DNA of 55,610 bases from an uncultured archaeon (GTDB taxonomy: Archaea > Asgardarchaeota > Lokiarchaeia > Sigyniarchaeales > SOKP01). The DNA is taken from contig CAZWEM010000026.1 of the NCBI GenBank assembly GCA_964632315.1, forward strand, positions 1 to 55,610, in the 5' to 3' direction. The notes below the pieces were generated by a model. That model made no database searches. It saw only the letters and a list, made by a program, of their open reading frames with translations, and was not told the origin of the DNA. Position numbers and translations under genes: made by a program. Numbering within the stretch: position 1 is the stretch's first letter; each line of letters begins with the position of its first letter. Of this stretch, positions 54,926 through 55,610 are shown piece by piece.

Positions 54926-55610
54926 TTGCCACACGCTTGCGCGGTTGAGAATGGCGGGCTGAATGAGTCGCCCGAAGGCTCCCCACGTACACCCCCATCT
55001 CACCAACCCCGTCTTTTACGGGTGCGCTCGTCTCAATTCCACGGTTCGCGTCACCGCGCCCCGCTCTCGGCACTTAAGTCGGTTCACATTTCTTTCATGG
55101 CGTTTTTCGAGCAATCAAGCAATCGATCTCTCAATCGCCCTCCCACGGAAGGCATCCGGCTTTCACAGGTAGCCTTACCTCCCGCACCGAATTAAATACA
55201 AACACGCACTTCGTGCACGCTGCGAATCAAGATGGGATGACTATTTTCGGGACCGGCTTCGTGCTTAGATGCGTTCAGCACTTATCCGTTAGCGCGTAGC
55301 TGCCCGGCGATGCCTTGTCAGACAACCGGTACACCAGAGGCGCCGGCAAAATGTTCCTCTCGTACTGATTTTCCCTTTCCCTCAATCATCCAACATACCT
55401 GGTAGATAGAATCCGACCTGTCTCACGACGGTCTGAACCCAGCTCACGTTCCCTTTTAATGGGCGTACAGCCCCACCCTTGGAAGTTATGCACCGCGGCT
55501 GATCGCGTGTCGATATGAACTCGACGCTCCTCTGCCAAACCGCGAATGTGCGCTCCCAGGATAGGAAGAGCCGACATCGAGGAAGCAAGCCACGAGGTCG
55601 ATAGGAACTC
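54926..55610 (-). rRNA. 23S rRNA, 3' part (helix 89 to 3' end; 3' boundary approximate)
   Basis: Minus strand shows TCGATGTCGGCTC, GAGCTGGGTTCAGACCGTCGTGAGACAGG, sarcin-ricin loop AGTACGAGAGGAAC and GCTGAACGCATCTAAG; GC-rich. Confidence 0.98.

Follow-up and report, generated by a model that had tools for sequence, protein, structure and literature searches.

A putative 58-nt BHB intron in the helix-91 loop of the 23S rRNA gene of an Asgard archaeon

The 3' end of the 23S rRNA gene and its insert

The window, i.e. the whole stretch of DNA analysed here, has a length of 55,610 nt and corresponds to the complete contig C26 of a 4.45 Mb assembly with a GC content of 33% (host assembly, G000). Its final 686 bases comprise, on the minus strand, the 3' end of an archaeal 23S rRNA gene, which is truncated at helix 89 by the contig end. 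A second copy or piece of the 23S gene was not found in the host assembly by blastn and motif scan, and no 5S gene was detected within the window. Directly downstream of the 23S gene, a gene for an RlmB-like SpoU rRNA methyltransferase was observed (53935-54708, minus strand).

The helix-91 loop comprises 62 nt in the window compared to 3 nt in the Rfam archaeal LSU rRNA model. Read in the strict BHB register, it contains an insert of 58 nt (55545-55488, minus strand). The original prediction had placed an insert of about 58-59 nt at 55488-55546; its sequence was confirmed, while the range proved one base too long. The insert presumably follows loop base 2534, as counted by motif on the E. coli sequence. 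The features of the locus are as follows:

2153-3625, plus strand: RtcB gene (PF01139, E 1.3e-170), the putative ligase, on the same contig and 52 kb from the insert
54925-55610, minus strand: 3' part of the 23S rRNA gene, model positions 2565-2987 (Rfam RF02540, E 1.4e-111)
55553-55558, minus strand: 5' strand of helix 91, outer helix of the BHB (predicted fold and covariation analysis)
55548-55551, minus strand: exon half GCAC of the central 4-bp helix, loop bases 2529-2532 (predicted fold and covariation analysis)
55545-55547, minus strand: 5' 3-nt bulge AT^T, cut predicted between 55546 and 55545 (register test)
55488-55545, minus strand: probable ORF-less intron of 58 nt, following loop base 2534 in E. 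coli numbering as counted by motif
55538-55544, minus strand: 5' arm of the 7-bp intron stem (predicted fold and covariation analysis)
55526-55535, minus strand: stretch common to the putative 30-nt same-site introns of loci L050 and L133 (shuffle p values of 0.003 and 0.006 without correction for the 32 comparisons)
55509-55522, minus strand: apical hairpin, identical to the host helix-89 loop at 13 of 14 positions, 9 nt in common with a family mini-intron at another 23S site
55494-55500, minus strand: 3' arm of the intron stem (predicted fold and covariation analysis)
55490-55493, minus strand: intron half GTGC of the central helix (predicted fold and covariation analysis)
55487-55489, minus strand: 3' 3-nt bulge AT^A, cut predicted between 55488 and 55487; the final A is the seventh loop base of the family
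55480-55486, minus strand: 3' strand of helix 91, A55486 opposite C55552 (C.A mismatch)

BHB substrates are cut after the second base of each 3-nt bulge. The minimum-energy fold determined for the insert region was the BHB itself, with the outer helix pairing 55558-55553 with 55485-55480 and with pair probabilities of 0.86-0.92 in the central helix and 0.62-0.98 in the intron stem. When the insert was shuffled 100,000 times in the same exon context, a 4-bp central helix combined with a 7-bp inner stem arose at a frequency of 5e-5. All junction elements named in the original prediction, namely the GCAC/GTGC helix of 4 bp, the two 3-nt bulges and the flanking helices, were present. Since the outer helix opens with a C.A mismatch, the motif can be described as slightly relaxed.

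Two other features were observed in the same gene end. At helix 98 (55230-55030, minus strand), about 180 nt of extra RNA, approximately 40-60% identical to relatives, represent the supersized ES39 described for Lokiarchaeota (PMC7594248). The A-loop (55469-55463, minus strand) showed TGTAC instead of the usual TGTTC (U2555A), which is common to most family members.

Occupancy of the site in related genomes

The region was present in 73 of 400 genomes of the phylum. Within the family of the window, 24 genomes carried an insert and 16 did not, and one further family genome showed a bacterial-type sequence only. The inserts of the 24 genomes (the host and 23 others) are hairpins of 28-58 nt. All 16 genomes without insert comprised a 7-nt helix-91 loop closed by C.A, while the other Asgard families with the region showed 6-nt loops and no insert. 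Since the 7-nt loop is the normal state in family members lacking the insert, the strict BHB cuts define the junction, and the reservation that a 7-nt loop renders the exact junction uncertain no longer applies. The alignment of Asgard 23S genes at helix 91, named in the original prediction as a check, revealed exactly the helix 91 that strict cutting of the host sequence would yield in a relative without insert (G036) and in the metagenome loci L134 and L142.

The exon variant GCACCT was found within one genus both with insert (G278) and without (G279 and G280). In a tree of 45 family 23S fragments, the presence of the insert changes at least seven times, with gain and loss being indistinguishable. 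Sister rows differing in the insert occurred at well-supported nodes, as for G278/G280 (100/98) and for G025 compared to G036 and L134 (97/98). The row of the host itself was 17% filled and was not placed, and mis-binning of rRNA is possible in assemblies of this kind.

An insert at the helix-91 site recurs in dozens of independent assemblies. The exact host insert was not found elsewhere in JGI metagenomes (pattern search), the 135 family genomes, phages or the rest of the host assembly. Given the distance of 65 nt to the contig end and the occurrence of the exact sequence in the host only, the inner bases of the insert rest on one assembly.

Survey of the site and register test

When 185,579 species genomes were searched for inserts of 4-64 nt, 82 stretches were obtained, and a metagenome scan added 13 loci. 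This survey required exact flanks and missed longer inserts. Together, they contain 33 distinct inserts of the family type with 28-58 nt (median 30). A further 46 distinct inserts of 22-60 nt occupy the same site, mostly in records of Woesearchaeota/Nanoarchaeota and Thermoproteota. The bacterial matches of the survey were mostly duplications or N gaps, and none comprised this junction. Bacterial-type 23S sequences were also found binned into Asgard assemblies (G015, G122, G145, contig C68 of G222 and contig C197 of G038).

Seven records titled Methanosarcinales (L056, L058, L059, L070, L103, L113 and L127) showed a 23S closest to Woesearchaeota among the loci compared, which comprised no true Methanosarcinales control. 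Judging from this similarity, the records are probably mislabelled or mis-binned, and Methanosarcinales were for this reason not counted as a fourth lineage. In four Thermoproteota loci with a helix-91 insert (L052, L068, L079 and L096), the consensus was also broken a few bases later at the A-loop, which suggests a second intron and a micro-exon at this point.

For the register test, the cut was slid across the junction and it was determined which register restores the conserved exon. In the strict register, the common loop was restored in 30 of 33 family inserts, the other three yielding exon variants, compared to 16 and 23 in the neighbouring registers. For the inserts of other archaea, the strict register restored the conserved loop in 46 of 46 cases and the neighbouring registers in 9 and 14. 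The first five pairs of the intron stem were paired to 87% in the strict register, compared to 37-44% when slid; none of 2000 shuffles reached the observed stem pairing, a result inflated by the fact that kin are not independent.

The same boundaries were reflected in the variability of the bases. Exon-side bulge bases were nearly invariant and intron-side bulge bases variable. The central helix covaries between the lineages (GCAG with CTGY, GCAC with GYGY), and across the family inserts the junction fold is kept by covariation while the inner sequence varies. In 18 of the 33 family inserts the central helix contains an A.C mismatch, and for these a slipped register was predicted to be 0.7-4.2 kcal/mol more stable. 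The host insert does not belong to this group, its best fold being the BHB.

It was considered whether the hairpin is retained in the mature 23S rRNA as an expansion segment extending helix 91, similar to ES39, a reading that the original prediction had left open. Many family inserts can indeed be folded as a continuous extension of helix 91 with a 5-6-bp helix, and the same gene contains a large ES39-type expansion of a kind that is transcribed in Lokiarchaeota (PMC7594248). A retained segment would not need the exact BHB register found in 79 distinct inserts from three lineages, and among close relatives, the well-supported sister rows among them, the insert is either there or missing without a trace. 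Furthermore, the helix-91 loop touches the sarcin-ricin loop: A2531 contacts A2662 of the latter as well as uL6 and is located at the uL6/EF-G interface (PMC4889946), and helix 91 packs on helices 89 and 95, pointing away from the peptidyl-transferase centre (PMC2952862). The original placement near the peptidyl-transferase centre has to be corrected accordingly, as the loop points to the sarcin-ricin loop and the GTPase centre. A retained insert would presumably hold A2531 inside the central helix. Altogether, the register test and the patchy presence speak against retention, which is considered very unlikely.

Splicing machinery and proposed excision

Two EndA subunits, with 207 and 205 aa, were found in the host assembly on contigs C28 and C8. 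The first aligns with EndA of Aeropyrum pernix (E 7.7e-34), with the Tyr-His-Lys triad being conserved, and the loop lysine of the catalytic subunit aligns with Aeropyrum K44. This loop has been linked to relaxed substrates and reported for Asgard archaea (Kaneta 2018, PMC5829648).

Directly behind the RtcB gene lies a convergent gene of 148 aa (window 2153-4072 for both), whose match to NF001617 was just under the cut-off. It looks like an archease. Three tRNA genes of the window (14528-14670, 16186-16287 and 17498-17596) are interrupted by inserts of about 26-31 nt. These lie outside the anticodon loop, with non-canonical positions 3' of the anticodon stem and in the T-arm region. The insert of tRNA-Lys showed a clear 4-bp helix with two 3-nt bulges. 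Two of the three genes were missed or miscalled by ARAGORN. Inserts of a similar kind with a length of 28-36 nt were also observed in the 23S genes of the family, at about eight positions other than helix 91.

Based on the comparative data, it is highly probable that the insert represents an ORF-less archaeal BHB rRNA intron spliced by proteins, which supports the original assignment for a Loki-type Asgard archaeon. According to the predicted fold and the covariation, four bases of the helix-91 loop would pair with the 3' end of the intron in the pre-23S RNA, and a BHB would form where the intron stem meets helix 91. In line with the known pathway and with the genes present, the (alpha-beta)2 EndA of the host would cut both 3-nt bulges behind their second base, and the exons would be joined by RtcB. 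The joined exons would form the 7-nt helix-91 loop of the family, with the same sequence as in relatives without insert, and the 58-nt piece would be released, perhaps as a circle.

Another explanation would be that EndA excises the insert and the exons stay unjoined, resulting in a fragmented 23S rRNA as for bacterial intervening sequences. Ligation is not visible from sequence, and the two halves of the 23S could be held together by helix 91. Against this, the joined exons equal the uninterrupted loop base for base, RtcB is encoded in the host, and archaeal rRNA introns have been described as RtcB-ligated (PMC4496867). Hence, there is hardly any probability left for a fragmented 23S rRNA.

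Internal sequence of the insert and other inserts of the family

With 58 nt, the host insert is the longest of the family, whose inserts usually have about half this size. In its 5' part it is similar to the introns proposed for L050 and L133, while its apical hairpin resembles helix 89 and mini-introns at other sites. It is therefore possible, judging from these similarities, that the insert originates from a fusion of two modules. A local duplication of helix 89 is not established by the similarity, since 9 of the 13 matching bases are also found in a family mini-intron elsewhere.

Further inserts were observed in the 23S genes of the family. Hairpins of 28-62 nt occur at about eight other sites (L006, L063, L078, L130, L132, L136, L143, L150 and L153-L155), and the same group of loci comprises inserts of 89-94 nt just before A2451 and of 120-209 nt in helix 93. 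A CATATCG-like apical loop is common to several of the family 23S inserts. The 57-nt insert of L153 (G273) shares its ends with the 31-nt insert of L136 and represents a second case of a mini-intron of double size. In L155 (G230), an insert of 777 nt was found in helix 93, about 60 nt downstream of the helix-91 site. Its proximity would allow this candidate homing-endonuclease intron to co-convert the one in helix 91.

It was also taken into account that the insert might be an artefact or chimera produced during assembly close to the contig end, partly from the adjacent helix-89 sequence. Such an origin would fit the short distance to the contig end, the unusual length and the occurrence of the exact insert in a single assembly, and a 14-nt stretch of the insert agrees with the start of the contig (its first 14 nt) in 13 positions (shuffle p 0.001). 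An imperfect match of 14 nt is shorter than usual assembly words. Moreover, the insert contains a 7-bp stem in the register of the family, and a further 23 genomes of the family have an insert at this site. Its loop motif recurs in mini-introns found elsewhere in the family, and the pair of 57 nt and 31 nt offers a parallel at another site. An artefact is considered very unlikely, with the lowest probability of the three alternatives.

Other types of element were rejected. A mobile homing-endonuclease BHB intron does not agree with a length of 58 nt, and no long form was found at the helix-91 site in 135 family genomes. The catalytic core of a group I intron comprises a few hundred nt, compared to 58 nt here, and no meaningful Rfam match was obtained. 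Box C and box D motifs, as expected for an intron-encoded box C/D guide RNA, were not found in the insert, nor was a convincing inner BHB for a nested or stacked intron. If the 28 nt located between two AGC repeats were removed, an intron of 30 nt similar to those of the family would remain, but a BHB for these 28 nt was lacking in all four registers.

Comparison with known systems

The closest known counterparts are the short (<50 nt) BHB introns in the 16S rRNA of Thermoproteales, e.g. Pog.S1205, which are likewise ORF-less hairpins with a BHB at the junction, lie in a conserved part of the rRNA and show a patchy distribution (Jay and Inskeep 2015, PMC4496867). These are excised by tRNA-splicing endonuclease and RtcB (PMC4496867). 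In contrast, the insert described here lies in the helix-91 loop of the 23S rRNA of an Asgard host and comprises 58 nt. Furthermore, no homing-endonuclease intron lies right beside it for co-conversion, the nearest candidate in a relative being the 777-nt insert of G230 about 60 nt downstream.

BHB introns in the 23S rRNA of Desulfurococcales, Thermoproteales and DPANN (PMC4496867; Nawrocki 2018, PMC6125680) share the gene and the motif, and inserts at the helix-91 site were also found in these lineages. There, a 6-nt loop is restored and a stem G forms the third bulge base, whereas the family described here restores a 7-nt loop. Non-canonical tRNA introns cleaved by an (alpha-beta)2 EndA with L1 loop (Kaneta 2018, PMC5829648) involve the same type of enzyme and a similarly relaxed motif with a mismatch beside the bulge, the difference being that the present substrate is rRNA. 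The Asgard ES39 (Penev 2020, PMC7594248) is likewise extra structured RNA in the Loki 23S, and one is located about 260 nt downstream of the insert. However, ES39 has been described as part of the rRNA, is transcribed and comprises sequence in all aligned family loci, while the insert is all-or-none and bounded by the BHB.

No report of the helix-91 site 2534 or of BHB introns in Asgard rRNA was found in the literature; the main catalogues of 23S intron sites, which lay outside the search, may list 2534. As far as found in print, an insertion site common to the Loki family, Woesearchaeota/Nanoarchaeota and Thermoproteota is new, as is the family-wide 7-nt loop.

Implications

Given a freely changing inner sequence, a maintained junction fold and a patchy distribution, the intron is probably a neutral passenger, selected only to stay spliceable. 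A more far-reaching interpretation would be that the intron has marked the ribosome permanently. The extra base and the C.A closure of the helix-91 loop, which are fixed in the whole family and absent in the other Asgard archaea searched, would have arisen with the intron as the third base of the 3' bulge and would have stayed after its loss; in addition, ORF-less mini-introns would have been repeatedly gained, lost and fused without a homing enzyme of their own, pointing to movement at the RNA level. This interpretation is speculative and rather unlikely.

Because the mechanism is known, the gain in knowledge is modest. In practical terms, the alignment of Asgard 23S genes and the scoring of their expansion segments should be preceded by the removal of such inserts. 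The natural pairs with and without intron offer small, ready substrates for probing how relaxed the Asgard EndA is. For the family itself, a 7-nt variant of the helix-91 loop was found, compared to 6 nt in the other lineages seen here. If the inserts are introns, the ribosomes of these Asgard archaea would depend for their assembly on the enzymes of tRNA splicing, at a loop in contact with the GTPase centre.
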